A stretch of DNA of 64,000 bases, taken from NCBI RefSeq assembly GCF_988243305.1, contig NZ_OZ547136.1; one strand, 5' to 3'. Positions 6,144-38,398 of the stretch are shown here, piece after piece. How positions within the stretch are numbered: position 1 is the stretch's first letter; the number at the start of each line of letters is the position of its first letter. The position numbers were made by a program, and so were the translations under genes. Under the pieces are notes generated by a model, which was given only the letters and a program-made list of their open reading frames with translations, did not search any database and was not told the origin of the DNA.

Positions 6144-6222
6144 ACCCCCTGACGCATGTTTGCAGCCTGAATCGTAAACTCTCTATCGTTGAATCGCGAC
6201 AGAAAGATTTTGGGAGCAAATG

Positions 6223-6723
6223 ATGCGCATAGTTACCGCTGCCGTCATGGCCTCAACGCTGGCAGTCAGTTCATTAAGCCACGCTGCTGAAGTCGGTTCA
6301 GGCGATAACTGGCATCCGGGTGAAGAACTTACGCAGCGCAGTACGCAGAGCCATATGTTCGACGGCATAAGTTTAACCGAACATCAGCGTCAGCAGATGC
6401 GAGATCTTATGCAACAGGCCCGGCACGAACAGCCTCCTGTTAATGTTAGCGAACTGGAGACAATGCATCGCCTTGTCACCGCAGAAAATTTTGATGAAAA
6501 CGCTGTGCGCGCACAGGCAGAAAAAATGGCGAATGAGCAAATTGCTCGTCAGGTTGAGATGGCAAAAGTCCGCAACCAAATGTATCGCCTGTTAACGCCG
6601 GAGCAGCAAGCGGTTTTAAACGAGAAACATCAACAACGAATGGAGCAGTTGCGCGACGTGACGCAATGGCAAAAAAGTTCATCGTTGAAGCTATTGAGTA
6701 GTAGCAACTCACGTTCCCAGTAG
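6223..6723 (+). CDS. cpxP: periplasmic Cpx pathway inhibitor/adaptor CpxP
   Basis: Track ORF 6220..6723. The K-12-type protein starts [11 protein letters not shown] at the second ATG (6223). Signal peptide and two LTXXQ motifs (LTEHQ, LTPEQ). Confidence 0.95.
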
Positions 6724-6732
6724 TAAACCCTG

Positions 6733-6790
6733 TTTTCCTTGCCATAGACACCATCCCTGTCTTCCCCCACATGATGTGGGGGTTTTTTTT
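6733..6790 (+). ncRNA. cpxQ: CpxQ sRNA (processed 3' UTR of cpxP mRNA)
   Basis: A 58-nt stretch, UUUUCCUUGCCAUAGACACCAUCCCUGUCUUCCCCCACAUGAUGUGGGGGUUUUUUUU, lies directly after the cpxP stop and ends in the terminator. It matches my recollection of CpxQ. The 5' end is set by RNase E processing and cannot be read from DNA. Confidence 0.6.
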
Positions 6791-6793
6791 ATC
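6747..6793 (+). repeat. prophage att core, copy 1 (int-proximal), 47 bp
   Basis: GACACCATCCCTGTCTTCCCCCACATGATGTGGGGGTTTTTTTTATC is identical to 38352..38398. The flanking bases differ on both sides. Confidence 0.92.
6764..6790 (+). terminator. cpxP/CpxQ intrinsic terminator
   Basis: CCCCCACAT-g-ATGTGGGGG hairpin followed by T8. Confidence 0.9.
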
Positions 6794-6909: not shown

Positions 6910-7890
6910 TTATAACGTCACTCCGCCTTTTAGTGGATTCAGAGCGACGGCATTTTGCAGATAGTCAGGCGCAAGGTGCGCATAGGCCATCGTCTGCTGA
7001 ATGCTCGCATGTCCCAGAATCTGTTGCAGTGCGATTATATTGCCCCCATTCATCATGAAATGGCTTGCGAATGTATGCCGCAGGATGTGGGTTGCCTGAT
7101 TGGGTGGTATATCAGGTTTCACTCTGCGTAAAATCCCGCAAAATTTCTCATAATCAACTTTGAATAATTTGGCGCTGGCCTCCTCTTTAACTTTTTTCTC
7201 CAGTTCCTCAGAAATCGGCACGGTTCGCTTTTTACCGTTTTTGGTTTTCAGGAAGGTAACCCTGCAATTTGTAATCTGTGCTGGTTTTAGCGTGGCAACT
7301 TCCGTCCATCTTCCTCCGGTGCTCAGACATAAAAGCGCGACAAGTAAGTCATCACCAGCCAAAACATTTAACAGTTTTTCGATTTCTGCTTTTTCCAGGA
7401 ACGTCATTTCAGGGTTGGCCTCCGCCAGTGGCGGCAGTCCGTGAATTGGGTGTTGCCCGGAAAATTCATCCAATTGAATTAATTTTGTGAACATGCCGGA
7501 TAATCGGTACATGTCACGGTTTATCGTTGCGGCACTGATACCATCACGTAGTCGCATGGAACGATAATCCATCAAAGCCCTTTTGCTCATCCTGCTCACT
7601 GGTATATCACCTATGCCGCTGATGGTTTTGAGTAGATGATTAAACTCTTTTGTTCCATGCTCGTGGTTTTGCCCGTGATATTTCCACCAGATGTCCAGCA
7701 ACTCACTCAAAGTCCGGCGGTCTGCTCGCTGGCCTCCCCATTCTTTCTGACTGGCATTGGCGATTGTGTATCGCTCAAATGCTAGTGCTTCAGCTTTTCT
7801 TTCGAATTTCCTGCGGATGCGTTTTCCGTCGCGACCGCGAGGTCTAATGTCCACTTCATAGCGACCATCATCGAGCTTCTTAATTGCCAT
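6910..7890 (-). CDS. int: P2-type tyrosine integrase
   Basis: Track ORF 6910..7920. The P2 Int-like N-terminus MAIKKLDDGRYEVDIRP starts at 7890, with GGAGGG 8 nt upstream. The C-terminus has the HxLRHTFASH...Y tyrosine-recombinase motifs. Confidence 0.93.
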   Translation of the reverse strand: MAIKKLDDGRYEVDIRPRGRDGKRIRRKFERKAEALAFERYTIANASQKEWGGQRADRRTLSELLDIWWKYHGQNHEHGTKEFNHLLKTISGIGDIPVSRMSKRALMDYRSMRLRDGISAATINRDMYRLSGMFTKLIQLDEFSGQHPIHGLPPLAEANPEMTFLEKAEIEKLLNVLAGDDLLVALLCLSTGGRWTEVATLKPAQITNCRVTFLKTKNGKKRTVPISEELEKKVKEEASAKLFKVDYEKFCGILRRVKPDIPPNQATHILRHTFASHFMMNGGNIIALQQILGHASIQQTMAYAHLAPDYLQNAVALNPLKGGVTL

Positions 7891-7959
7891 AAGAAAGCCC
7901 TCCGGCGCTGTATTCACCATCTTGGTAGCAAATGGTAAAAATGTAATCTTTATATAGAG

Positions 7960-10146: not shown

Positions 10147-10418
10147 GTATTCGTATTGAAATTGGCGAACGTTATGTCGTTACCAGTGACAGCTTTCAGT
10201 TTATTCTCCACGAGAAAAAGAGAGCGGAAAGCGGTAAAAACGCCGGTCAGGAATGGCTGGCGGTGGTTGGTTATTACCCGAAATTAGGCCAGCTCGTTTC
10301 CGGCCTGATGCATCACGATATTCTGACCGGAAGCGCAAAATCTTTTGCTGATTTAAACGCGCAGGTTGAGCAACTCAGCAAGCGTTGTTCAGAGGCTTTT
10401 GGCTCATATGGCCGTTAA
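10143..10418 (+). CDS. hypothetical early protein (P2 orf83 position)
   Basis: 91-aa track ORF coupled to its neighbours by overlapping start and stop codons. Confidence 0.65.
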   Translation: MSIRIEIGERYVVTSDSFQFILHEKKRAESGKNAGQEWLAVVGYYPKLGQLVSGLMHHDILTGSAKSFADLNAQVEQLSKRCSEAFGSYGR

Positions 10419-12684
10419 AGCCTCCGGGCGTTTTGTCCCTCCGTCAGCATTTACCGCAGGCACCGGTAAGGCGTTTACCGGTGCTTATGCATGGAACGCG
10501 CCACGCGAGGATGTCGGGCGCGAAAGACCTCTTACACGTGACGAGATGCGTCAGGTGCAAGGTGTTTTATCCACGATTAACCGCCTGCCTTACTTTTTGC
10601 GCTCGCTGTTTACTTCACGCTATGACTACATCCGGCGCAATAAAAGCCCGGTGCACGGGTTTTATTTCCTCACATCTACTTTTCAGCGTCGTTTATGGCC
10701 GCGCATTGAGCGTGTGAATCAGCGCCATGAAATGAACACCGACGCGTCGTTGCTGTTTCTGGCAGAGCGTGACCACTATGCGCGCCTGCCGGGAATGAAT
10801 GACAAGGAGCTGAAAAAGTTTGCCGCCCGTATCTCATCGCAGCTTTTCATGATGTATGAGGAACTCTGCGATGCATGGGTTGATGCGCATGGTGAAAAAG
10901 AATCGCTGTTTACGGATGAGGCGCAGGCTCACCTGTATGGTCATGTTGCTGGCGCTGCACGTGCTTTCAATATTTCCCCGCTCTACTGGAAAAAATACCG
11001 TAAAGGACAGATGACCACGAGGCAGGCATATTCTGCCATTGCCCGCCTGTTTAACGATGAGTGGTGGATTCATCAGCTTAAAGGCCAGCGTATGCGCTGG
11101 CATGAGGCGTTACTGATAGCTGTCGGGGAGGTCAATAAAGACCGTTCTCCTTATGCCAGTAAACACGCCATTCGTGATGTGCGTGCGCGCCGCCAGGCAA
11201 ATCTGGAATTTCTTAAATCGTGTGACCTTGAAAACAGGGAAACCGGCGAGCGCATCGACCTTATCAGTAAGGTGATGGGCAGTATTTCTAATCCTGAAAT
11301 TCGCCGGATGGAGCTGATGAACACCATTGCCGGTATTGAGCGTTACGCCGCCGCAGAGGGTGATGTGGGGATGTTTATCACGCTGACCGCGCCGTCAAAG
11401 TATCACCCGACACGTCAGGTCGGAAAAGGCGAAAGTAAAACCGTTCAGCTTAATCACGGCTGGAACGATGAGGCATTTAATCCAAAGGATGCGCAGCGTT
11501 ATCTCTGCCGTATCTGGAGCCTGATGCGCACGGCATTCAAGGATAATGATTTACAGGTCTACGGTTTGCGAGTCGTCGAGCCACACCACGACGGAACGCC
11601 GCACTGGCATATGATGCTTTTTTGTCATCCACGCCAGCGTAACCAGATTATCGAAATCATGCGTCGCTATGCGCTCAAAGAGGATGGCGACGAAAGAGGA
11701 GCCGCGCGAAACCGTTTTCAGGCAAAACACCTTAACCGGGGCGGTGCTGCGGGATATATCGCGAAATACATTTCAAAAAACATCGACGGCTATGCACTGG
11801 ATGGTCAGCTCGATAACGACACCGGCAGGCCGCTGAAAGACACTGCAGCGGCTGTTACCGCATGGGCGTCAACGTGGCGCATTCCGCAATTTAAAACGGT
11901 TGGCCTGCCGACAATGGGGGCTTACCGTGAACTACGCAAATTGCCTCGCGGCGTCAGCATTGCTGATGAGTTTGACGAGCGCGTCGAGGCTGCACGCGCC
12001 GCCGCAGACGGTGGTGATTTTGCGCTGTATATCAGCGCGCAGGGCGGGGCAAATGTCCCGCGCGATTGTCAGACTGTCAGGGTCGCCCGTAGTCTGTCGG
12101 ATGACGTTAACGAGTACGAGGAAGAAGTCGAGAGAGTGGTCGGCATTTACGCGCCGCATCTCGGCGCGCGTCATATTCATATCACCAGAACGACGGACTG
12201 GCGCATTGTGCCGAAAGTTCCGGTCGTTGAGCCTTTGACTTTAAAAAGCGGCATCGCCGCGCCTCGGAGTCCTGTCAATAACTGTGGAAAGCTCACCGGT
12301 GGTGATACTTCGTTACCGGCTCCCACACCTTCTGAGCACGCCGCAGCAGTGCTTAATCTGGTTGATGACGATGTTATCGAATGGAATGACCCGGAGGTCG
12401 TGAGGGCGCTCAGGGGCGCATTAAAACACGACCGGAGAACGCCAAACCGTCAGCAAAGAAACGGAAGCCCGTTAAAACCGCATGAAATTGCACCATCGGC
12501 CAGACTGACCCGGTCGGAACGATTGCAAATTACCCGTATCCGCGTTGATCTCGCTCAGAACGGTATCAGGCCGCAACGATGGGAGCTTGAGGCGCTGGCG
12601 CGTGGCGCGACCGTAAATTATGACGGGAAACCTTTCACTTATCAGGTCGCTGATGATTGGCCGGGATTTTTGTTACCCATTTGA
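10408..12684 (+). CDS. A: P2 A-like rolling-circle replication initiation endonuclease
   Basis: Track ORF 10366..12684. The P2 gpA N-terminus MAVKASGRFVPPSAF starts at 10408. Contains the HUH-type motif EPHHDGTPHWHMMLF and the active-site YIAKYISK tyrosines. Confidence 0.93.
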   Translation: MAVKASGRFVPPSAFTAGTGKAFTGAYAWNAPREDVGRERPLTRDEMRQVQGVLSTINRLPYFLRSLFTSRYDYIRRNKSPVHGFYFLTSTFQRRLWPRIERVNQRHEMNTDASLLFLAERDHYARLPGMNDKELKKFAARISSQLFMMYEELCDAWVDAHGEKESLFTDEAQAHLYGHVAGAARAFNISPLYWKKYRKGQMTTRQAYSAIARLFNDEWWIHQLKGQRMRWHEALLIAVGEVNKDRSPYASKHAIRDVRARRQANLEFLKSCDLENRETGERIDLISKVMGSISNPEIRRMELMNTIAGIERYAAAEGDVGMFITLTAPSKYHPTRQVGKGESKTVQLNHGWNDEAFNPKDAQRYLCRIWSLMRTAFKDNDLQVYGLRVVEPHHDGTPHWHMMLFCHPRQRNQIIEIMRRYALKEDGDERGAARNRFQAKHLNRGGAAGYIAKYISKNIDGYALDGQLDNDTGRPLKDTAAAVTAWASTWRIPQFKTVGLPTMGAYRELRKLPRGVSIADEFDERVEAARAAADGGDFALYISAQGGANVPRDCQTVRVARSLSDDVNEYEEEVERVVGIYAPHLGARHIHITRTTDWRIVPKVPVVEPLTLKSGIAAPRSPVNNCGKLTGGDTSLPAPTPSEHAAAVLNLVDDDVIEWNDPEVVRALRGALKHDRRTPNRQQRNGSPLKPHEIAPSARLTRSERLQITRIRVDLAQNGIRPQRWELEALARGATVNYDGKPFTYQVADDWPGFLLPI

Positions 12685-12943
12685 GTAAAAATACAGCGTG
12701 ATTTTATATGTCTTTGAATGGATTATGCGAAACACCTCTAAGGTAGATGAGGAGCAATAGCGTGTTGAATCAGAAGGCTAAATTGTATTGAATCGTTAGC
12801 ATGTAATTGAAGGCAGCTATTTGATTCGAGTCATAAAAGAGCATCTATTTCGGTTAATAAAACCATTGCGAGTGACTTTATGTCGAAGCATAATTCATCT
12901 CGAGCGAAGTCTTGCTAGTCTTTCATCGGATTGATGACGGGCG

Positions 12944-12975
12944 CAAAAAAACCACCCTGGCAGGTGGTTTTTTTG
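12944..12975. terminator. bidirectional intrinsic terminator
   Basis: A7-ACCACC-ctggca-GGTGGT-T7. The A-run and T-run flank the stem, so it can terminate transcription from either side. Confidence 0.75.
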
Positions 12976-12986
12976 TTTGAAGCATA

Positions 12987-13100
12987 CTAAAGAAAAATAC
13001 TTACATGGATATTACTGACGTTTACTGACAAACCACTCGGACTACCATATGGATAGCCAAAGAGGGCCAGAACGAGAATGCAGTAATAGCACTTCTTCAT
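12987..13100 (-). CDS. 37-codon hydrophobic mini-ORF (candidate small membrane/toxic peptide)
   Basis: Below the track's length cut-off. The minus strand reads AGGAGG-cgat-ATG AAG AAG TGC TAT TAC TGC ATT CTC GTT CTG GCC CTC TTT GGC ... TAG, giving MKKCYYCILVLALFGYPYGSPSGLSVNVSNIHVSIFL. The bidirectional terminator lies 12 nt after its stop. Confidence 0.45.
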   Translation of the reverse strand: MKKCYYCILVLALFGYPYGSPSGLSVNVSNIHVSIFL

Positions 13101-13822
13101 ATCGCCTCCTGTAAGCAGAGGGCAATTTCCGCCGATATATGCGCTTCTAAGGCGGAGTGACTATTGAGCGAAGTCTTGCCCTGAAATAATGCTCTGTTTA
13201 AACGCAAAGTGATCTGGCATATCACCGAACAGAGGACCTGAACAACACAACATATAGTATGTCGTTGTTTCTGGTTGCATTTTATGTTGTGTAATACTGG
13301 TTTTGCATCAAGGATGTTTGAGCTTTTTTTGATATAGCTCAAAGTAAAAAGCAGAGACTACGGATGATAAGGTCTTGAAAGCAATGTAAATTTTTTAAAG
13401 TTGTGAGTGGCTAGAAATGCACAGTTTCAATATGGCGGATTTAAACAAGTAATTAAAAATAGCGACACAAATTCCAATAAAATCATTAAGTTGCGTTTTC
13501 TGTGGAAACTTCGGTGACTCTGAAATTTTCTTTTAGTATCGCTGAGGTTTAACAACTCGCTGCGCAAGTAGTTAGTGTTTTTTTTAACTCAATATTCTGA
13601 TTTATAAGGTTTTTTATAAATCGTGGGCTGGTTGCGCATATTCATCTCGTGTTATCAGCAAAGATAAGCTCTATATGCAGAACTGAATGCATATATGATG
13701 TCGAAAATGTTATGGGAAAACGTGGATTAGTGTTATAGTAATGGCTGAAAAACAGCCTTGACATAAAATAACAACTGTGATATGGCTGTGCATACTTAAC
13801 TTTTTTAACGTAGGAGGCAACC

Positions 13823-14308
13823 ATGAGCTATGCAGCTAAAAAACTGCTTGACCGCTATTGGGATCGCCGACTACCTGTCGATCCGTTTAAGCTTGCTAAA
13901 GCGTGGGGTGCTCGTGTTGAAGCACTTGAGGAATCGGCTTATAACAACGATGGGTTAAGCGGTCTGGCTGTCATCAAAAAGGGTGTCCATAGGATTTATT
14001 TTGATTCTAGTGAACATTCTAATCGTCAACGTTTTACTGTTGCACACGAGTTAGGTCATCATGTGCTGGGGCATACCCAGGACGGAGAGTACCATCGGGA
14101 TAATGTCGGGAATTATTCAACAGGTGCTCGTGATTACCGTGAGGTTGAAGCAAACAAGTTTGCTGCTGAGTTGTTAATGCCTGAGTCTGCTATACGTCAA
14201 TTGGTATCCAGAGAAGGTATTGATAGCACTTTGAGATTAGCAAGCATCTTTAATGTATCAGAAGCCGCTATGCATTGGCGCTTAAAGAGCTTAGGAATGG
14301 CTTATTAA
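13823..14308 (+). CDS. ImmA/IrrE-family (Peptidase_M78/DUF955) zinc metallopeptidase
   Basis: 161-aa track ORF with AGGAGG 5 nt upstream. HEXXH motif in FTVAHELGHHVLGH, followed by EVEANKFAAELLMPE, the characteristic third-ligand/helix block of the family. Confidence 0.85.
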   Translation: MSYAAKKLLDRYWDRRLPVDPFKLAKAWGARVEALEESAYNNDGLSGLAVIKKGVHRIYFDSSEHSNRQRFTVAHELGHHVLGHTQDGEYHRDNVGNYSTGARDYREVEANKFAAELLMPESAIRQLVSREGIDSTLRLASIFNVSEAAMHWRLKSLGMAY

Positions 14309-14335
14309 TTAGCCTTTAACTTTTAACCTGTTTAA

Positions 14336-14374
14336 AATCACCTTTACGTTTGTACATGTAAGGGTGATTTTTTT
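14336..14374 (+). terminator. hairpin plus T7 between the peptidase gene and the 2-TM gene (terminator/attenuator that covers the downstream RBS)
   Basis: AATCACCTTTA (14336-14346) pairs with TAAGGGTGATT (14359-14369) over 11 bp, including one G-U. T7 runs directly into ATG 14375. The 3' arm contains the only SD-like AAGGGTGA for the next gene. Confidence 0.6.
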
Positions 14375-14974
14375 ATGGCTGATATTGATTTATCTGGACA
14401 GTCCCCAGAGCAAGGAACCACTCCTAAGGGCGATTTAGATCCTGATATCCTTATAAGGCGAGATAGACGGGATGGTATAGAGCGTAGAAGTATGCGATTA
14501 GTGCTCTCTGCCGTTGTGCTTTGTTTTGCTTGTACATTTCTATGGCAGGGGCTTAACTTTGCTTTGGCTGTTGGAAATGGCTTGCTGGAAGCGAAAAGCA
14601 GTATTGCCGCAGCGATAACACAAAAAGTAGATACACAAACTTGTGTTTCAGCAGAAAAATGTTCTGCTTTATCTTCGGATCCGAAGATGGCTGATGAGAG
14701 GATAACACCATCTTCAGACACTAATAAAGTTAGAAAATCTATTTCTGGTTTATCCACCGATTGGTTATCGGCCAGTTCTCTAATAGCTATTGTTGCATTC
14801 ATCCTTGGTGTGGGTTTAACTTTGCTTTTGACTCTTCTTAAATCAGCATTTCAACACCCGACAGATAAAGACTTTAGAACAAAGTCGACATCTAATACTA
14901 TTGAGTTGGCCACGCCAATCAGTGAATTAATAATTGGTGTTCTGAATATAATTAAAGACAAACTATCTAAGTAA
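14375..14974 (+). CDS. hypothetical two-transmembrane-helix protein
   Basis: 199-aa track ORF. Charged N-terminus, then hydrophobic helices LVLSAVVLCFACTFLWQGLNFALAV and LIAIVAFILGVGLTLLLTLL. I recognise no family. Confidence 0.65.
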   Translation: MADIDLSGQSPEQGTTPKGDLDPDILIRRDRRDGIERRSMRLVLSAVVLCFACTFLWQGLNFALAVGNGLLEAKSSIAAAITQKVDTQTCVSAEKCSALSSDPKMADERITPSSDTNKVRKSISGLSTDWLSASSLIAIVAFILGVGLTLLLTLLKSAFQHPTDKDFRTKSTSNTIELATPISELIIGVLNIIKDKLSK

Positions 14975-15016
14975 AGCATTAGTTGTGATTTTTTATTGGT
15001 TTTAGTGATAATACAT

Positions 15017-15049
15017 CTCCAGTACTTATTGTTACTGGAGAGTATTTTT
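15017..15049. terminator. hairpin between convergent genes
   Basis: CTCCAGTA-cttattgt-TACTGGAG followed by agTATTTTT. Lies between the stops at 14974 (+) and 15057 (-). Confidence 0.65.
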
Positions 15050-15056
15050 AGTCGTT

Positions 15057-15998
15057 TTATATTTTTAATGTTAGTGAATGATATTCACGAGAGTTCACGT
15101 TCGATGTGATGTAATCGGGGGCGTTAACACCAAGAATCGCAACGAGTAATCGGCAAATTAAAGCCTGCATTTGTTGTAATATGTCATCTCCATATTGATA
15201 ATTGTTAATAGTGGTAAAGCCAAGTGGTTGACCATGAAACATAGCTTCATGAAAGTTTTCATTGCGGATGTTTGTAATGTTTTTTTTACCTGTAACCCAT
15301 GATGGTCGTGGTATTCCATAAGTTTTGCAGATCCACTTCAAGCGCCTGGAGTGATTTAGAGTCTTTTCTGTACACTTGTTCTTTTCTGCCCATGTTAAAG
15401 CAAAGCAACTATCCAGTGCCATATAAAGATACTGGAATTTTTCGAAGCTAAGGTATTGTGGGTTTTGGGATAAAAATAGTGCATGCACTATTGCTGCTAT
15501 ATTTATTGGTGCGTGTTTGGTTTTTGTCTCGCTAGACATGTATTTGAGTGCTAATTCTATAACCTCTTTTTCAGAGCACTTGACCAGAATAAAGTCAGTT
15601 AATTTGCTGGGTTTTATTGGGGTTGCGTCTAAAAAACCGGCATCAGTAGTTGTTAATCTTATCCCTTTGAAAAAAGACAGACACCACACAGCAAAATTGA
15701 GAGTTTCTAGTGAAGATGTATTTTTTAATTTTAGTGAGTGTGTTTTGGGTAAGCCAAATACTCGTTGGCTAAAAGGCATTGTGGATATGCCTCCATTGAG
15801 GTTATATACTTCTTGGTTTCCTGGGTATATCCAACCGTTAATAACATTTCTGTGATTGTTTATAAGATTTGTTTTTTCCGCTAGACCGGGTAAAGTAAGT
15901 AAAGAAAAATCATCAGTTTCAACGTTAACTTCTACTGGATAGTATCCAAACTCAGCTTCAATATCATTGGATTGCTGTTCGTCAACTTTACCTTGCAT
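15057..15998 (-). CDS. hypothetical 313-aa protein with a C-terminal HEPN-like RNxxxH motif (candidate abortive-infection RNase)
   Basis: Track ORF with GGAG 8 nt upstream of the ATG. The codons CGC AAT GAA AAC TTT CAT at 15266..15249 encode RNENFH (R245-H250) in a predicted helical C-terminal region. AT-rich codon usage unlike the rest of the prophage. Confidence 0.6.
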   Translation of the reverse strand: MQGKVDEQQSNDIEAEFGYYPVEVNVETDDFSLLTLPGLAEKTNLINNHRNVINGWIYPGNQEVYNLNGGISTMPFSQRVFGLPKTHSLKLKNTSSLETLNFAVWCLSFFKGIRLTTTDAGFLDATPIKPSKLTDFILVKCSEKEVIELALKYMSSETKTKHAPINIAAIVHALFLSQNPQYLSFEKFQYLYMALDSCFALTWAEKNKCTEKTLNHSRRLKWICKTYGIPRPSWVTGKKNITNIRNENFHEAMFHGQPLGFTTINNYQYGDDILQQMQALICRLLVAILGVNAPDYITSNVNSREYHSLTLKI

Positions 15999-16236
15999 AC
16001 ATTGCTCCGGTCAAAAATAGGCTCGATAATTCTCGTAAGCCTATCATGTTCGCAAAGTATCCATACCTGTGGATTTTGTAAATTTAAGTTGATTTGTCAT
16101 TAAATAAGCCGTTGCATGCAACAAGTGAATGTTTTTGCATGCGTCGGGGATGTCCGTTCAGGCTGCGTGCGGTCAGGACTGGTGCGGATCCATAGTATCT
16201 ATGCAACTGCATTAAAACCGCCCCATGAAGCGGGCG

Positions 16237-16255
16237 GGCGAGGCGGGGAAAGCAC
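16237..16255 (+). other. cos: P2 cos cohesive-end sequence (19 nt)
   Basis: GGCGAGGCGGGGAAAGCAC is an exact match to my recollection of the P2 cohesive end. It is located just upstream of the Q/P packaging genes, as in P2. Confidence 0.85.
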
Positions 16256-16397
16256 TGCGCGCTGGCGGTGGTGCTGATTTTATTTTTTCAGCGTCTCAGC
16301 GCGTCGTGACGGCGTTTGGATTGTGCGCCGGGGCGTTGGTGTGTCTGTGGGGTGTTTTGTGCGGTGGTGAGCGTGTGAGGGCGTGATGACGGGGTGT

Positions 16398-16419
16398 AAA
16401 AAAGCCGCCCGCAGGCGGC
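16398..16419 (-). terminator. intrinsic terminator after gene Q
   Basis: The minus strand reads GCCGCC-tgcg-GGCGGC-TTTTTT, beginning 5 nt after the Q stop. Confidence 0.8.
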
Positions 16420-16424
16420 GATGT

Positions 16425-17459
16425 TCAGCCGTTGTCGGTGTCCAGTGAGTAGTTTTTAAAGCGGATGACCTCCTGACCGAGCCAGCCGTTTATCTCGCGG
16501 ATCCTGTCCTGTAACGGGATAAGCTCATTGCGGACAAAGACCTTTGCCACTTTCTCAATATCACCCAGCGACCCGACGTTCTCCGGCTTGCCGCCCATCA
16601 ACTGAAAAGGGATGCGGTGCGCGTCCAGCAGGTCTGCGGCGCTGGCTTTTTTGATATTAAAAAAATCGTCCTTCGTTGCCACTTCACTGAGCGGGATAAT
16701 TTTAATGCCGTCGGCTTTCCCTTGCGGGGCATAGAGAAACAGATTTTTAAAGTTGTTGCGGCCTTTCGACTTCACCATGTTTTCGCGGAGCATTTCGATA
16801 TCGTTGCGATCCTGCACGGCATCAGTGACGTACATGATGTATCCGGCATGTGCGCCGTTTTCGTAATACTTGCGGCGGAACAGCGTGGCCGACTCATTCA
16901 GCCAGGCAGAGTTAAGGGCGCTGAGATATTCCGGCAGGCCATACAGCTCCTGATTAATATCCGGCTCCAGCAGGTGAAACACGGAGCCGGGCGCGAAAGG
17001 TGTCGGCTCATGGAAGGACGGCACCCACCAGTAAACATCCTCTTCCACGCCACGGCGGGTATATTTTGCCGGTGAGGTTTCCAGTCTGATGACCTTACCG
17101 GTGGTGCTGTAACGCTTTTCCAGAAACGCATTACCGAACACCAGAAAATCCAGCACAAAGCGGCTGAAATCCTGCTGGGAAAGCCACGGGTGCGGAATAA
17201 ACGTTGAAGCCAGAATATTACGTTTGACGTAAATCGGTGAGCTGTGATGTACGGCAGCACGCAGGCTTTTTGCCAGACCGGTAAAGCTGACCGGTGGCTC
17301 ATACCATCTGCCGTTACTGATGCACTCGACGTAATCCAGAATGTCACGGCGGTCGAGTACCGGCACCGGTTCACCAAAGGTGAATGCCTCCATTTTCGGG
17401 GCGCTGGCGGTCATTTTTTTTGCCGCAGGTTGCGGTGTTTTCCCTTTTTTCTTGCTCAT
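16425..17459 (-). CDS. Q: portal protein
   Basis: 344-aa track ORF, the same length and position as P2 gpQ. Adjacent to cos and coupled to P. Confidence 0.93.
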   Translation of the reverse strand: MSKKKGKTPQPAAKKMTASAPKMEAFTFGEPVPVLDRRDILDYVECISNGRWYEPPVSFTGLAKSLRAAVHHSSPIYVKRNILASTFIPHPWLSQQDFSRFVLDFLVFGNAFLEKRYSTTGKVIRLETSPAKYTRRGVEEDVYWWVPSFHEPTPFAPGSVFHLLEPDINQELYGLPEYLSALNSAWLNESATLFRRKYYENGAHAGYIMYVTDAVQDRNDIEMLRENMVKSKGRNNFKNLFLYAPQGKADGIKIIPLSEVATKDDFFNIKKASAADLLDAHRIPFQLMGGKPENVGSLGDIEKVAKVFVRNELIPLQDRIREINGWLGQEVIRFKNYSLDTDNG

Positions 17460-27564: not shown

Positions 27565-28168
27565 TTCGCGCCTGCTGCCGACTGGCTCATCACCGCTTGA
27601 AGTCGCCGCCGCAAAAGCCTGTGCAGAAATTGAAAAAACGCCGGTCAGTATTCGTGAGCTGTGGAACCCGGATACCTGTCCGGCAAATCTGCTGCCGTGG
27701 CTGGCGTGGTCATTTTCGGTTGACCGCTGGGATGATAAGTGGCCGGAAGCGACAAAACGCGCTGTTATCCGCGATGCGTATTTCATTCACTGCCATAAGG
27801 GCACTATAGGCGCAATCCGTCGTGTGGTGGAGCCGCTCGGCTATCTGATTGAGGTGAGGGAGTGGTGGCAACTCAATGAGGAGCCGGGGACGTTCCGCAT
27901 CGTTGTTGGCGTGCTTGAGCAGGGTATTACCGAGGAAATGTATCAGGAGCTGGAGCGCCTCGTTGCTGATGCAAAACCTGCAAGCCGCCATCTGACGGGA
28001 CTGGCTATCAGTTTAAGTACAACCGGCAACATTTTTGCCGGTGCAGGATGCTATCACGGTGACGCCCTGACGGTTTATCCCTACACCCCGGAGGCCATTA
28101 TTGTCGGAGGGGATTATTTCCCGGCCTCGGCCATTCATTTAATTGATAACCTGAGAGTAAACGCATGA
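27557..28168 (+). CDS. I: baseplate/tail-fibre attachment protein I
   Basis: 203-aa track ORF at the P2 gpI position. It is longer than my recollection of P2 gpI (176 aa). Confidence 0.85.
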   Translation: MSDSRLLPTGSSPLEVAAAKACAEIEKTPVSIRELWNPDTCPANLLPWLAWSFSVDRWDDKWPEATKRAVIRDAYFIHCHKGTIGAIRRVVEPLGYLIEVREWWQLNEEPGTFRIVVGVLEQGITEEMYQELERLVADAKPASRHLTGLAISLSTTGNIFAGAGCYHGDALTVYPYTPEAIIVGGDYFPASAIHLIDNLRVNA

Positions 28169-29529
28169 CAGTGAAATACTACGCCATTCTGACTATTCAG
28201 GGCGCAGCACGGCTGGCTAACGCGACGATGCTCGGCAGTAAGCTGAATCTGACGCAAATGGCCGTTGGTGATGCGAATGGTGTCTTGCCGACACCAGACC
28301 CGGCACAGACAAAACTGATTAACCAGAAACGCATTGCACCGCTGAATCTTCTTAGTGTTGACCCGAACAACCAGAGCCAGATTATTGCGGAGCAAATCAT
28401 CCCTGAGAGCGAGGGCGGATTCTGGATCCGTGAGATTGGGCTTTATGATGATGAAGGCGTACTCATTGCGGTGGCGAACTGCCCGGAAACGTACAAACCG
28501 CAGTTGCAGGAAGGCAGCGGTCGTACCCAGACTATCCGCATGATTCTGGTTGTCACGAATACCGAAGCCATCACGCTGAAAATCGACCCGTCGGTGGTAC
28601 TGGCGACCCGTAAATACGTGGATGATGAAGTCCTGGAATTAAAGCTGTATGTGGATGACCAGATGAGAAACCACATTGCCGCACAGGATCCTCATACCCA
28701 GTATGCGCAGAAACATAATCCGACATTTACCGGAGAACCAAAAGCGCCGACGCCTGCCGCAGGAAATAACACCACGCGGATTGCGACCACTGAGTTTGTT
28801 CAGGCCGCTATTACCGCTCTGATTAACGGTGCGCCAGCCACACTGGACACACTGAAAGAAATTGCCGCGGCCATTAACAATGACCCGAAATTCAGCACCA
28901 CCATTAACAATGCGCTGTCAGGTAAGCAGCCACTGGATGAGACGCTGACTCATTTGAGTGGAAAGGATGTAGCTGGTCTTCTCGCATACCTTGGTTTGGG
29001 AGAAGGTTCGGCATTACCCGTTGGCGTGCCTGTTCCGTGGCCTTCCGCCACTCCGCCAACAGGCTGGCTGAAATGCAACGGTGCCGCTTTTTCTGCTGAA
29101 GAATACCCGGAACTGGCAAAGGCTTATCCGACAAATAAATTGCCTGATTTACGTGGTGAGTTTATTCGTGGCTGGGATGACGGGCGTGGTGTGGATGCGG
29201 GACGTGCCTTGCTAAGTCTTCAGGATGACTCTTTTGAAGCGCACAGGCATGAGTCCTTTTTTTACGCGGGTATTTCTCGCAATGAAATACCATTAAAAAA
29301 TCTTCCAAGTTCAGACGAGATGCTGACTTTAAGTTCTACAACTAATGCCTTGTCCCCGGACGGTATTGATGCCACTAATTCGTTAATTGGTAATGATGAT
29401 TACAACTGTCTGATTGAAGGAAATAAAAATAACAAACGAACAGCGACGGGGTTGAGTACCAGTATTGTCGGTGCAGCAGAGACACGCCCACGTAATATTT
29501 CATTTAATTACATTGTGAGGGCTGCATGA
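28165..29529 (+). CDS. H: tail fibre protein H: constant N-terminus fused to the currently expressed variable C-terminus (tail-collar type)
   Basis: 454-aa track ORF. The N-terminus resembles the P2/Mu fibre shaft. After LAYLGLGE, the C-terminus (PVGVPVPWPSATPPTGWLKCNGAAFSAEEYPELAKAY...LPDLRGEFIRGWDDGRG) is a phage tail-collar fibre domain, as in Mu S/P1 S. Confidence 0.9.
   Translation: MTVKYYAILTIQGAARLANATMLGSKLNLTQMAVGDANGVLPTPDPAQTKLINQKRIAPLNLLSVDPNNQSQIIAEQIIPESEGGFWIREIGLYDDEGVLIAVANCPETYKPQLQEGSGRTQTIRMILVVTNTEAITLKIDPSVVLATRKYVDDEVLELKLYVDDQMRNHIAAQDPHTQYAQKHNPTFTGEPKAPTPAAGNNTTRIATTEFVQAAITALINGAPATLDTLKEIAAAINNDPKFSTTINNALSGKQPLDETLTHLSGKDVAGLLAYLGLGEGSALPVGVPVPWPSATPPTGWLKCNGAAFSAEEYPELAKAYPTNKLPDLRGEFIRGWDDGRGVDAGRALLSLQDDSFEAHRHESFFYAGISRNEIPLKNLPSSDEMLTLSSTTNALSPDGIDATNSLIGNDDYNCLIEGNKNNKRTATGLSTSIVGAAETRPRNISFNYIVRAA
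28979..29004 (+). promoter_or_regulatory. 26-bp invertase crossover site (cix/gix/pix-like), left
   Basis: TTCTCGCATACC-TT-GGTTTGGGAGAA: two 12-bp imperfect inverted half-sites around a central TT. Lies inside H at the constant/variable junction. 15 bp (TTGGTTTGGGAGAAG) is repeated in inverted orientation at 30902..30916. Confidence 0.8.
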
Positions 29530-30131
29530 TGTATAACGCCATCTTGAATAGTAAACTTATTGCCACAAAGGCAGGAGAGATTACCGTTTATAACTATGAC
29601 AGTGAGACACGGGAGTATATTTCTGCATCAACTGAATATCTTGCTGTGGGTGTCGGTATCCCTGCATATTCCTGTTTAGATGCTCCTGGCACACATAAGG
29701 CTGGTTATGCAATCTGCCGTTCGGCAGATTTAAACTCATGGGAATATGTGCCAGACCATCGCGGTGAAATCATCTATAGCACCGAAACAGGAGAATCGAA
29801 AGAAATCACAGCTCCGGGTGATTATCCTGAAAATACAACCACTATCGCCCCGTTAACGCCATACGATGAATGGGATGGTGAGAAATGGGTAACAGATACT
29901 GTGGCACAGCATAGCGCCGCAGTAGGCGCGGCAGAAGCACAGCGCCAGTCACTGATTGATGCAGCAATGGCTTCCATTAGTCTGATTCAGCTGAAATTAC
30001 AGGCCGGACGGAAGTTGACGCAGGCAGAAACAACCAGCCTTAACGCTGTGCTGGATTACATTGACGCGGTGACGGCAACTGATACCAGCACCGCGCCTGA
30101 TGTCATCTGGCCTGAACTGCCGGAGGCGTAG
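29526..30131 (+). CDS. G: tail fibre assembly chaperone (G/Tfa/U-like), partner of the expressed H variant
   Basis: 201-aa track ORF overlapping the H stop. Its C-terminal ...LDYIDAVTATDTSTAPDVIWPELPE resembles the Tfa/Mu U family ending. Confidence 0.85.
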   Translation: MMYNAILNSKLIATKAGEITVYNYDSETREYISASTEYLAVGVGIPAYSCLDAPGTHKAGYAICRSADLNSWEYVPDHRGEIIYSTETGESKEITAPGDYPENTTTIAPLTPYDEWDGEKWVTDTVAQHSAAVGAAEAQRQSLIDAAMASISLIQLKLQAGRKLTQAETTSLNAVLDYIDAVTATDTSTAPDVIWPELPEA

Positions 30132-30543
30132 GCCATTCAATATCTGGCGCACCGGAAGTATCGACCAGCTCCAGTGCGTCCAGATAATCCAGCCACAAAT
30201 TATATTGCGCCAGTTCCTCACCTTTCAGACGACCAATAGCCGCTTTACCAGGCCATTGTTTACTGTTCATGTATTCGTTGGCCTGGTTAATCAATTGCTG
30301 TTTTTCCAGTTCGGCTGCAGCAATCTGTTCCTCATGTGTTGGTGGTGGAATTTCAGACCATGCAGGAAAACCATTTTCTCCAGCGATGCGGATTTTCCCT
30401 TCCGGCGGTAATCCGGAAAACTCAATATACACCTGCTCGTCAACTTCAACAGCATCATCTGGCCATGATTCAGCTTGAGTGTAATCCTCTTTCATCTCCA
30501 GCGGATAGAAAGAGTTTGTAGTCGCGGAATATATATAATTCAT
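30103..30543 (-). CDS. alternative tail fibre assembly chaperone (G'/U'-like), silent in this orientation
   Basis: 146-aa track ORF on the opposite strand inside the invertible segment. It ends ...LDYLDALELVDTSGAPDIEWPTPP, the same family ending as G. Its 3' end overlaps the G 3' end by 29 bp. Confidence 0.82.
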   Translation of the reverse strand: MNYIYSATTNSFYPLEMKEDYTQAESWPDDAVEVDEQVYIEFSGLPPEGKIRIAGENGFPAWSEIPPPTHEEQIAAAELEKQQLINQANEYMNSKQWPGKAAIGRLKGEELAQYNLWLDYLDALELVDTSGAPDIEWPTPPAVQAR

Positions 30544-30564
30544 TTCTCATTCCATATAGCTAAA

Positions 30565-30915
30565 TTAACAGCCTAACGCTAAAAATGAAGCGCCGAGACC
30601 TGGAGTACTGGCTCTGGATATAAATTTAACCGGGTCGGGACTAAAACCTGCACAGGCAATATAACCAACAGCCCCGCTATCTGGTGTGTAGTCTTGTGAG
30701 ACCAAAACACGCAGACATCTGTTTGGAAATGCAATCGGGAAATGGGTTACTACATCCTGTGCAATGCCTGGTGCGCCGATTGAGCCCCACTGAAGAATAA
30801 AACCTGATGGTAATTTTTGATATCCAGTACCTGAAACAGAAAGCGTGAAGCTACCCATATCAGGTATCTGATTCGCCCCTGTCCCTACATTCCTTTTAGC
30901 CGCTTCTCCCAAACC
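30565..30915 (-). CDS. alternative tail fibre C-terminal cassette (Hv'), start-less; fused in frame to H after inversion
   Basis: This is part of the track ORF 30565..30957. The GGT TTG GGA GAA codons at the crossover are in the same frame as in H, so inversion gives ...[26 protein letters not shown]...[13 protein letters not shown].... The portion 30916..30957 lies outside the segment and is not a real N-terminus. Confidence 0.8.
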
Positions 30916-30929
30916 AACGTTTATGAAAA
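30904..30929 (-). promoter_or_regulatory. 26-bp invertase crossover site, right (inverted relative to 28979..29004)
   Basis: The plus strand reads TTCTCCCAAACC-AA-CGTTTATGAAAA. The reverse complement shares the core and one full half-site with the left site. Confidence 0.8.
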
Positions 30930-30984
30930 TGCAGAGATAACGGGCAACTGGCATCATCTCCGGTTTTTATTCAGGGGGATGCTC

Positions 30985-31578
30985 ATGCTTATTGGCTATG
31001 TACGCGTGTCAACAAATGACCAGAACACGGAATTGCAGCGTAACGCGCTGGAGTGCGCAGGATGCGAGCGGATTTTTGAGGATAAAATCAGCGGCACGAA
31101 GTCCGACCGACCGGGACTGAAAAAACTGCTCAGAACATTATCATCAGGTGACACTCTGGTAGTCTGGAAGCTGGACCGGCTGGGGCGTAGTATGCGGCAT
31201 CTGGTCATTCTGGTTGAGGAGCTGCGCGAACGCGGCGTTAATTTTCGCAGCCTGACAGATGCTATTGATACCAGCACGCCGATGGGGCGTTTTTTCTTTC
31301 ATGTGATGGGTGCCCTGGCTGAAATGGAACGAGAACTCATTGTCGAGCGGACTCGCGCCGGACTGGAAGCGGCCAGAGCTAAAGGTCGTATTGGTGGCAG
31401 ACGTCCGAAGCTCACCGCGAGTGAGTGGGAACAGGCAGGACGGTTGCTGGTTGCGGGTGAATCACGTCAACGCGTGGCGCTGATTTTTGATATTGGCCTG
31501 TCCACGCTCTATAAAAAATTCCCCTCATCAGCGGCAAAGAATAAATTGTGTCATCCCTTAGCCAACCGGGACAAATAG
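30985..31578 (+). CDS. serine DNA invertase (Pin/Gin/Cin/Hin family)
   Basis: Track ORF 30979..31578. ATG 30985 has GGGGG 6 nt upstream and gives MLIGYVRVSTNDQNT (catalytic Ser motif). The rest is collinear with Pin/Gin by recollection (DRLGRS, GRFFFHVMGALAEMERE, C-terminal HTH ...STLYKK). Confidence 0.92.
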   Translation: MLIGYVRVSTNDQNTELQRNALECAGCERIFEDKISGTKSDRPGLKKLLRTLSSGDTLVVWKLDRLGRSMRHLVILVEELRERGVNFRSLTDAIDTSTPMGRFFFHVMGALAEMERELIVERTRAGLEAARAKGRIGGRRPKLTASEWEQAGRLLVAGESRQRVALIFDIGLSTLYKKFPSSAAKNKLCHPLANRDK

Positions 31579-31637: not shown

Positions 31638-32828
31638 ATGAGTGACTATCATCACGGCGTGCAGGTGCTGGAGATTAACGACGGCACCCGTGTCATTTCC
31701 ACCGTATCCACTGCCATTGTTGGCATGGTCTGCACGGCCAGCGATGCGGATGCGGAAACCTTCCCCCTCAATAAACCGGTGCTGATTACCAATGTGCAGA
31801 GTGCAATTGCAAAGGCCGGTAAAAAAGGCACGCTGGCGGCATCGTTGCAGGCTATCGCCGACCAGTCAAAACCGGTCACCGTTGTCGTGCGTGTGGAAGA
31901 CGGCACCGGCGACGACGAGGAAACAAAACTCGCGCAGACCGTTTCCAATATCATCGGCACCACCGACGAAAACGGTCAGTACACCGGACTGAAAGCCCTG
32001 CTGGCGGCGGAGTCTGTTACCGGTGTTAAACCGCGTATTCTCGGCGTGCCGGGACTGGACACCAAAGAGGTGGCTGTTGCACTGGCATCAGTCTGTCAGA
32101 AGCTGCGCGCTTTCGGGTATATCAGCGCATGGGGCTGTAAAACCATTTCCGAGGTGAAAGCCTACCGCCAGAATTTCAGCCAGCGTGAGCTGATGGTCAT
32201 CTGGCCGGATTTCCTCGCATGGGATACGGTCACCAGTACAACCGCCACCGCGTATGCCACCGCCCGTGCGCTGGGTCTGCGCGCTAAAATCGACCAGGAG
32301 CAGGGCTGGCATAAAACGCTGTCCAACGTCGGGGTAAACGGTGTTACCGGCATCAGCGCCTCTGTATTCTGGGATTTGCAGGAGTCCGGCACCGATGCTG
32401 ACCTGCTTAACGAGTCAGGCGTCACTACGCTGATTCGCCGCGACGGTTTCCGATTCTGGGGTAACCGTACCTGCTCTGATGACCCGCTGTTCCTCTTTGA
32501 AAACTACACCCGCACCGCGCAGGTGCTGGCCGACACGATGGCTGAGGCGCACATGTGGGCGGTGGACAAGCCCATCACCGCAACGCTGATTCGCGACATC
32601 GTTGACGGCATCAATGCCAAATTCCGTGAGCTGAAAACAAACGGCTATATCGTGGATGCGACCTGCTGGTTCAGCGAAGAATCCAACGATGCGGAAACCC
32701 TCAAGGCCGGAAAACTGTATATCGACTACGACTATACTCCGGTGCCTCCTCTCGAAAACCTGACCCTGCGCCAGCGTATTACCGATAAATACCTGGCAAA
32801 TCTGGTCACCTCGGTTAACAGCAATTAA
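31638..32828 (+). CDS. FI: contractile tail sheath protein
   Basis: 396-aa track ORF at the P2 gpFI position and length. Confidence 0.93.
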   Translation: MSDYHHGVQVLEINDGTRVISTVSTAIVGMVCTASDADAETFPLNKPVLITNVQSAIAKAGKKGTLAASLQAIADQSKPVTVVVRVEDGTGDDEETKLAQTVSNIIGTTDENGQYTGLKALLAAESVTGVKPRILGVPGLDTKEVAVALASVCQKLRAFGYISAWGCKTISEVKAYRQNFSQRELMVIWPDFLAWDTVTSTTATAYATARALGLRAKIDQEQGWHKTLSNVGVNGVTGISASVFWDLQESGTDADLLNESGVTTLIRRDGFRFWGNRTCSDDPLFLFENYTRTAQVLADTMAEAHMWAVDKPITATLIRDIVDGINAKFRELKTNGYIVDATCWFSEESNDAETLKAGKLYIDYDYTPVPPLENLTLRQRITDKYLANLVTSVNSN

Positions 32829-38351: not shown

Positions 38352-38398
38352 GACACCATCCCTGTCTTCCCCCACATGATGTGGGGGTTTTTTTTATC
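38352..38398 (+). repeat. prophage att core, copy 2 (ogr-proximal), 47 bp
   Basis: Identical to 6747..6793. Carries a second copy of the last 44 nt of CpxQ, including the terminator hairpin and T8. Confidence 0.92.

Follow-up and report, generated by a model that had tools for sequence, protein, structure and literature searches.

A very probable two-state Pin-type inversion switch for the tail-fibre end in a P2-like prophage of Escherichia coli

In phage Mu, with its G segment and the invertase Gin, and in phages P1 and P7, with their C segment and Cin, the constant N-terminus of the tail fibre is encoded outside an invertible DNA segment and two Sv/U cassettes lie inside it; the invertase gene also stands outside the segment and carries the recombinational enhancer in its 5′ part. 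The defective lambdoid element e14 of Escherichia coli K-12 contains a P segment (stfP-tfaP / tfaE-stfE / pinE) whose flipping has been measured at approximately 1:1 (PMC4272514). Sequencing of clonal cultures detected both orientations side by side at e14 and at two P2-like prophage loci of the enteropathogenic E. coli (EPEC) strain E2348/69 (Goldberg et al, 2014; PMC4272514), and a 2024 preprint reported that a DNA invertase is often present in the Z/fun hotspot, with inversion of adjacent genes (bioRxiv 10.1101/2024.10.15.618418). Here we analysed a 64,000-nucleotide stretch of an E. coli chromosome (NCBI RefSeq assembly GCF_988243305.1, contig NZ_OZ547136.1; the whole stretch is referred to as the window). 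The locus at positions 28979–31578 of the window, within a P2-like prophage, is very probably a Pin-type switch with two states that exchanges the receptor-binding end of the tail fibre by site-specific inversion, a reading to which we assign a probability of roughly 0.93.

The switch is defined by two crossover sites and the segment between them:
28979–29004: left crossover site, TTCTCGCATACC-TT-GGTTTGGGAGAA (12-2-12 layout), core TT at 28991–28992, within the H codons for ...LLAYLGLGE
30904–30929: right crossover site, TTCTCCCAAACC-AA-CGTTTATGAAAA (12-2-12 layout), core AA at 30916–30917
28993–30915: invertible segment, 1923 bp from core dinucleotide to core dinucleotide, as used for inversion in silico

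These 26-bp sites are inverted relative to each other and agree at 21 of 26 positions after reverse complementation, with a longest unbroken identity of 15 bp (TTGGTTTGGGAGAAG). Two inverted 12-2-12 sites sharing 15 identical bp had been proposed at these positions in a preliminary description of the locus made from its sequence, and both were recovered here. A 19-nt site pattern, allowing up to three mismatches, had no matches in the 64 kb beyond these two, the left site scoring on both strands; shuffled sequences gave a mean of 0.08 matches and none of 100 shuffles reached 3. The two sites are real and lie far above chance expectation. The right site is identical over 26/26 bp to the site adjoining pinE in e14. 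As a control, the same scan recovered the Mu gix sites exactly at the annotated boundaries of the G segment, and it also recovered both sites of the e14 P segment. The arrangement corresponds to that of the invertase family, with two inverted 26-bp sites, each composed of imperfect 12-bp half-sites around matching 2-bp cores, flanking the segment. We failed to identify a third crossover site in the 64 kb with the 19-nt pattern (up to three mismatches) or in the 27–33 kb region at up to 8/26 mismatches. A three-site shufflon, as in the EPEC P2-like prophage other than the two-site remnant compared below, was rejected for this reason, and the lack of a third site leaves a simple two-state switch.

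The recombinase gene lies immediately to the right:
30985–31578, plus strand: serine DNA invertase of the Pin/Gin type, 197 aa, outside the segment; Pfam Resolvase at residues 3–135 and HTH_7 at residues 138–181

This gene is intact, and its start at the ATG at 30985, 55 bp past the right site as the preliminary description had it, is supported by alignment to Gin and PinE; a further in-frame ATG is located at 30979. The product is 85.6% identical to PinE and 78.3% identical to Gin, and the Gin structures 3UJ3 and 4M6F match its residues 1–184 at E = 1e-94. It has the composition of the small serine recombinases of this family, with a catalytic serine (Ser9) in the N-terminal sequence MLIGYVRVS and a helix-turn-helix at the C-terminus. 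In the related invertase Hin, residues K47, K/R48, K/R51, Q151, R154 and L155 are uniquely conserved among Fis/enhancer-dependent invertases, as opposed to resolvases, and their role is contact with Fis and the enhancer (McLean et al, PMC3798978). The invertase encoded in the window has counterparts of all six, namely K46, K47, R50, Q150, R153 and L154 (Gin numbering, which is that of Hin minus 1), and so retains the residues specific to Fis and enhancer contact.

A candidate for the enhancer itself was localised to the 5′ part of the invertase gene:
31007–31069: putative recombinational enhancer, consisting of two Fis-like 15-mers, TGTCAACAAATGACC (31007–31021) and GCGCAGGATGCGAGC (31055–31069)

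The two 15-mers start 48 bp apart and occupy nucleotides 23–37 and 71–85 of the gene, with the first centred approximately 97 bp from the right crossover point. They form the top-scoring pair of this kind in the invertase genes of the window and of strain ABW_A19 and in pinE, and the second-best in gin (17.4 versus 17.6), in an identical register throughout. The pair also falls within the interval annotated in P7 as the putative cin enhancer (gene nucleotides 19–86). Among six invertase genes compared, codons 7–29 show 54% synonymous identity versus 40% for codons 30–135, which is consistent with an enhancer without proving one because the protein, too, is highly conserved there. Based on these features, a Fis enhancer is plausibly located at nucleotides 23–85 of the gene.

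The fibre cassettes occupy the left flank and the interior of the segment:
28165–29529, plus strand: tail-fibre gene H in its present form, 454 aa; Pfam Phage_tail_fib at residues 1–150 and Collar at residues 287–334
29526–30131, plus strand: chaperone (tail-fibre assembly protein) of the present C-terminus, TfaE-like; Pfam Caudo_TAP, E = 3e-31
30103–30543, minus strand: chaperone of the alternative C-terminus; Pfam Caudo_TAP, E = 3e-38
30565–30915, minus strand: alternative fibre C-terminus, Gp53-like_C; Pfam PF21882, E = 4.5e-15

Residues 1–276 of H form a constant part outside the switch, and the residues from 277 onward represent the exchangeable C-terminus of the tail-collar type. The open reading frames (ORFs) and their Pfam domains bear out the earlier proposal that two fibre C-termini, each with its own chaperone, are arranged on opposite strands between the sites: the constant N-terminus is outside, the two C-termini inside are both in frame, and each is followed by a Caudo_TAP chaperone of its own. 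The start of the plus-strand chaperone gene overlaps the stop codon of H. The two chaperone genes overlap tail to tail over the 29 bp (30103–30131) given in the preliminary description, and the same 29-bp overlap is kept in e14, EPEC and ABW_A19. We also observed an 18-nt inverted repeat (83%) at 30050–30067 and 30176–30193, which reflects homologous motifs (LDYIDA and LDYLDA) at the C-termini of the proteins encoded by the two convergent chaperone genes.

The alternative C-terminus lacks a start of its own and would be expressed solely once inversion joins it to codon 280 of H. The minus-strand “gp53-like” ORF listed at 30565–30957 represents the silent alternative end of H and not a separate gene. 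When the inversion was recomputed between the core dinucleotides, H stayed open as the earlier analysis had anticipated, giving a 392-aa product (H′) with the junction ...LLAYLGLGE/AAKRNVG.... The earlier estimate that the last 175 versus 117 residues are swapped was close, its second number being inexact: 174 residues follow GLGE at present and 112 do so after inversion, or 178 and 116 when counted from G277. Compared with e14, the plus-strand chaperone has 90.5% identity to TfaE and the collar-type variable part of H has 67% identity to StfE. Identity to e14 TfaP is 62% for the minus-strand chaperone, and the fibre tip associated with it is of another type, with 31% identity to StfP; despite the similarity of the chaperones, we rejected the possibility that the alternative cassette is e14 StfP on the basis of this 31% identity. 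Because the C-terminal domain families differ (Collar versus Gp53-like_C), the two orientations are likely to confer different host ranges.

Both orientations of this locus were found among other genomes. Using a 600-bp query across the left junction and a coverage of at least 80%, we recovered the present junction from 316 complete E. coli genomes, compared with 29 for the computed inverted junction. Matches to the latter reach 99.3% identity in a single piece, and the annotation in those genomes describes an intact tail protein; ABW_A19 and GPEC1210 each have an annotated, intact H′ gene of 392 aa. Of 5426 complete E. coli genomes, at least 183 match the 5.3-kb module region over 80% or more of its length. 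In ABW_A19 the entire locus has the opposite orientation and is collinear with the window inverted in silico, in two blocks of 96.3% and 97.0% identity, with the exception of a divergent stretch of approximately 290 bp in the collar-type cassette.

The closest comparison is provided by the sister chicken isolates GPEC1209 (NZ_CM142785) and GPEC1210 (NZ_CM142786), in which one and the same prophage is found in opposite switch states. On either side of the switch the two sequences are 100% identical (4449 and 3945 bp), and the intervening 1873 bp are inverted, at 99.95% identity. Alignment overlaps of 15 and 18 bp mark the breakpoints, located inside two 26-mers that are identical to the sites in the window, and the GPEC invertase matches that of the window at 193/197 residues. 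These alignments indicate that inversion has taken place naturally at exactly these sites, and the GPEC pair offers a ready-made natural control for studying the switch.

Copies of the I-H-switch-FI region with approximately 97% identity were also observed on plasmid records of 66–216 kb (NZ_CP018956, NZ_CP146689 and NZ_CP104682), with 328 matching places on plasmids; based on these matches, P2-like tail modules with the switch are also plasmid-borne.

In the proposed mechanism, the invertase would bind the two 26-bp sites as dimers and, together with Fis bound to an enhancer within the 5′ portion of the invertase gene, would cleave at the central dinucleotides and rotate the 1923-bp segment. 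In the present orientation, codons 1–280 of H would be continued by the tail-collar-type C-terminus and followed by the TfaE-like chaperone. After inversion the same 280 codons would lead in frame into the Gp53-like C-terminus, giving the 392-aa H′, followed by the TfaP-like chaperone. A population of lysogens would then release virions with one or the other of two fibre tips, presumably differing in receptor specificity. We infer both the dependence on Fis and enhancer and the effect on host range from the sequence features described above. The switch is very probably functional and is predicted to be active in the strain from which the window derives. A lysogen carrying this prophage is thus expected to be a mixed population that yields two kinds of virion, which is relevant to host-range prediction and to assembly of the region.

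Several observations weigh against this interpretation. The outer half-sites are imperfect, with half-site to half-site matches of 10/12 in the left site and 8/12 in the right site, and in this copy of the prophage just one orientation is seen. We did not find a sigma-70-like promoter in the 55-bp spacer between the right site and the invertase gene; the promoter-like and terminator-like matches in the region, which include a weak hairpin plus T-run at 30946–30965, were in total not above those in shuffled sequences. The second Fis-like site has a G+C-rich centre, and the conservation of the enhancer interval is confounded by the highly conserved N-terminal protein sequence.

The single orientation, the imperfect outer half-sites and the missing promoter-like site could also be accommodated if inversion no longer occurs in this copy, whether through weak expression of the invertase, degenerate outer half-sites or a defective enhancer, leaving the minus-strand cassette as a silent relic. 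The roughly tenfold excess of the present junction over the inverted one (316 versus 29 complete genomes) points the same way. However, none of the five genes is disrupted, the invertase keeps its catalytic and Fis-contact residues, and both sites are identical in every letter to those of GPEC1209 and GPEC1210, which differ from each other by exactly this inversion and whose invertase departs from that of the window at 4/197 residues. Furthermore, related invertases are able to act in trans. We consider a frozen state of this kind very unlikely.

It is less credible still that RecA-mediated general recombination, or an assembly error, between inverted homologous sequences produced the two orientations. 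The chaperone genes do have inverted homologous 3′ ends (18 nt, 83%), and assemblers can mis-orient segments between repeats. Against this, the GPEC breakpoints lie in the 15–18 bp common to the 26-bp sites, away from the chaperone homology, and recombination between the chaperone 3′ ends was rejected as the cause for that reason. A stretch of 15 bp would also probably be too short for RecA to recombine efficiently. A dedicated invertase gene adjoins the segment, the same junctions recur across many independent complete genomes, and the e14 and EPEC modules co-exist clonally in both orientations (PMC4272514). Invertase-mediated recombination at the 26-bp sites remains the preferred explanation of both orientations.

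The genomic setting of the switch is given by the following features:
6220–6723: cpxP, gene flanking the prophage on the left
6747–6792 and 38352–38397: attL and attR, a 46-bp direct repeat (GACACCATCCCTGTCTTCCCCCACATGATGTGGGGGTTTTTTTTAT) bounding the prophage
6910–7920, minus strand: integrase
31539–31569, plus strand: homologue of the activator-binding site of the P2 late promoter pF, based on P2 annotation and alignment; right edge of the inserted module
31638–32828, plus strand: tail sheath gene FI, downstream flank of P2 backbone; Pfam Phage_sheath_1 and related domains, and identity to P2
38459–39379: fieF, gene flanking the prophage on the right

The P2-like prophage spans approximately 31.6 kb between cpxP and fieF in the E. 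coli chromosome, with flanking sequence 99.7% identical to E. coli. It looks complete, as judged by its integrase, gpA, portal, capsid and tail genes, ogr and intact att repeats; the ogr-like zinc-finger ORF is located just within the right prophage end. It has been speculated that such heterogeneity may be used by the host (PMC4272514), and the flipping EPEC module sits in a truncated prophage remnant, but a main role in the lysogen other than phage host range, such as diversification of a domesticated tailocin-like particle or another host-beneficial function, is exceedingly improbable here, as the prophage looks complete and an ordinary role in phage host range is the simplest reading.

Identity to P2 is 94.6% across V-W-J-I up to position 27993 and resumes at 31558, just upstream of FI, at 95.8%. 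Tail_P2_I and sheath domains are present, consistent with a P2 tail backbone that carries cargo between G and FI. In P2 this interval contains fun(Z), with no invertase there; in the window it is occupied by the second cassette and the invertase gene. The preliminary description was therefore correct in placing the switch in a P2-like tail operon at the Z/fun position, and our comparison with P2 agrees with its statements that P2 lacks such a switch and has Z/fun between G and FI. The module, which begins at the left site and ends with the invertase gene, is, on alignment, an e14-like cassette that replaces the end of P2 H, G and fun(Z) up to pF.

The right edge of the module falls inside the pF activator site, and as a result the invertase ORF is 13 codons longer than pinE (197 versus 184 aa) and ends in that site, its last 13 codons overlying the pF activator-site homologue in the 31539–31578 region. 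The extended ORF is also present in ABW_A19 and GPEC1209 (197 aa), whereas it is absent from Fels-2 and the EPEC remnant, whose invertase genes end earlier or differently. This overlap may simply be a recombination scar. We regard it as unlikely, although somewhat less so than a frozen switch, that expression of the invertase and Ogr-activated late transcription of the FI operon influence each other and so tie switching to the lytic programme; if they did, late activation might alter invertase read-through, or the changed 5′ part of the activator site might retune FI expression.

The other variable hotspot of P2, the old/tin position, corresponds in the window to 12700–16400, a stretch of low G+C (38–45%), between gpA (10366–12684) and the portal gene (16425–17459). 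It encodes an M78 peptidase similar to CapP and RmrA at 13823–14308. The ORFs at 14375–14974 (plus strand, membrane-protein-like) and 15057–15998 (minus strand) gave no Pfam or PADLOC match. It is possible that the genes at this position represent uncharacterised defence or regulatory cargo.

Comparison with the known systems places the locus as follows. Mu and P1/P7 share its mechanism and layout, including an invertase gene outside the segment and an enhancer, putative in the window, in the 5′ part of that gene. They differ in belonging to other phage families, in their larger segments (about 3–4 kb) and in their half-sites (gix TTATCCAAAACC/TTCCTGTAAACC). The backbone of P2 is 95% identical on both sides (V-W-J-I, and pF through FI onward); unlike the prophage in the window, however, P2 encodes a fixed H of 669 aa and a G of its own, and its slot contains fun(Z) and no invertase. 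We also observed that P2 gene H contains a relic gix-like 26-mer, TTATCGAATATCTCGGTTTACAGGAA (NC_001895, 13857–13882), in which the core and right half equal those of Mu gix and the left half has four differences from it. This 26-mer suggests that the P2 fibre descends from a once-invertible arrangement.

The two-site locus of the EPEC E2348/69 remnant (NC_011601, 2977580–2979467) has its cassettes, invertase and FI ordered as in the window, with 81.5% identity over 4.5 kb, and shares the inner half-site plus core, TTGGTTTGGGAGAA. This remnant is truncated just to the left of the left site and lacks the constant part of H, and the C-terminus of its invertase differs from that in the window. 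Fels-2 of Salmonella Typhimurium LT2 (Felsduovirus, Peduoviridae) has the same layout in the same slot, in the order H, G, G′ (minus strand), H′ (minus strand), DNA invertase and FI. Its invertase gene region is approximately 76% identical to that of the window at the DNA level, and its cassettes are different and larger; unlike the gene in the window, the Fels-2 invertase gene stops approximately 100 bp short of FI and does not overlap the promoter region. A DNA invertase is also annotated in this slot in phage pro483, in the “P2” prophage of O157:H43 strain T22, in phage S164 and in a Salmonella phage.

With respect to the preliminary description, the identification of a Gin/Cin/Pin-type switch stands, with all structural elements intact, whereas the implied novelty of its placement in a P2-like tail operon does not, this arrangement being already on record for Fels-2, pro483, T22 and EPEC. 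The device is an ordinary one that has already been described: its mechanism is textbook knowledge, and P2-like phages with such a device in this slot are documented. In gene order the module is the same as the e14 P segment, which is part of a defective lambdoid element, whereas in the window it is set in a complete P2-like tail operon.

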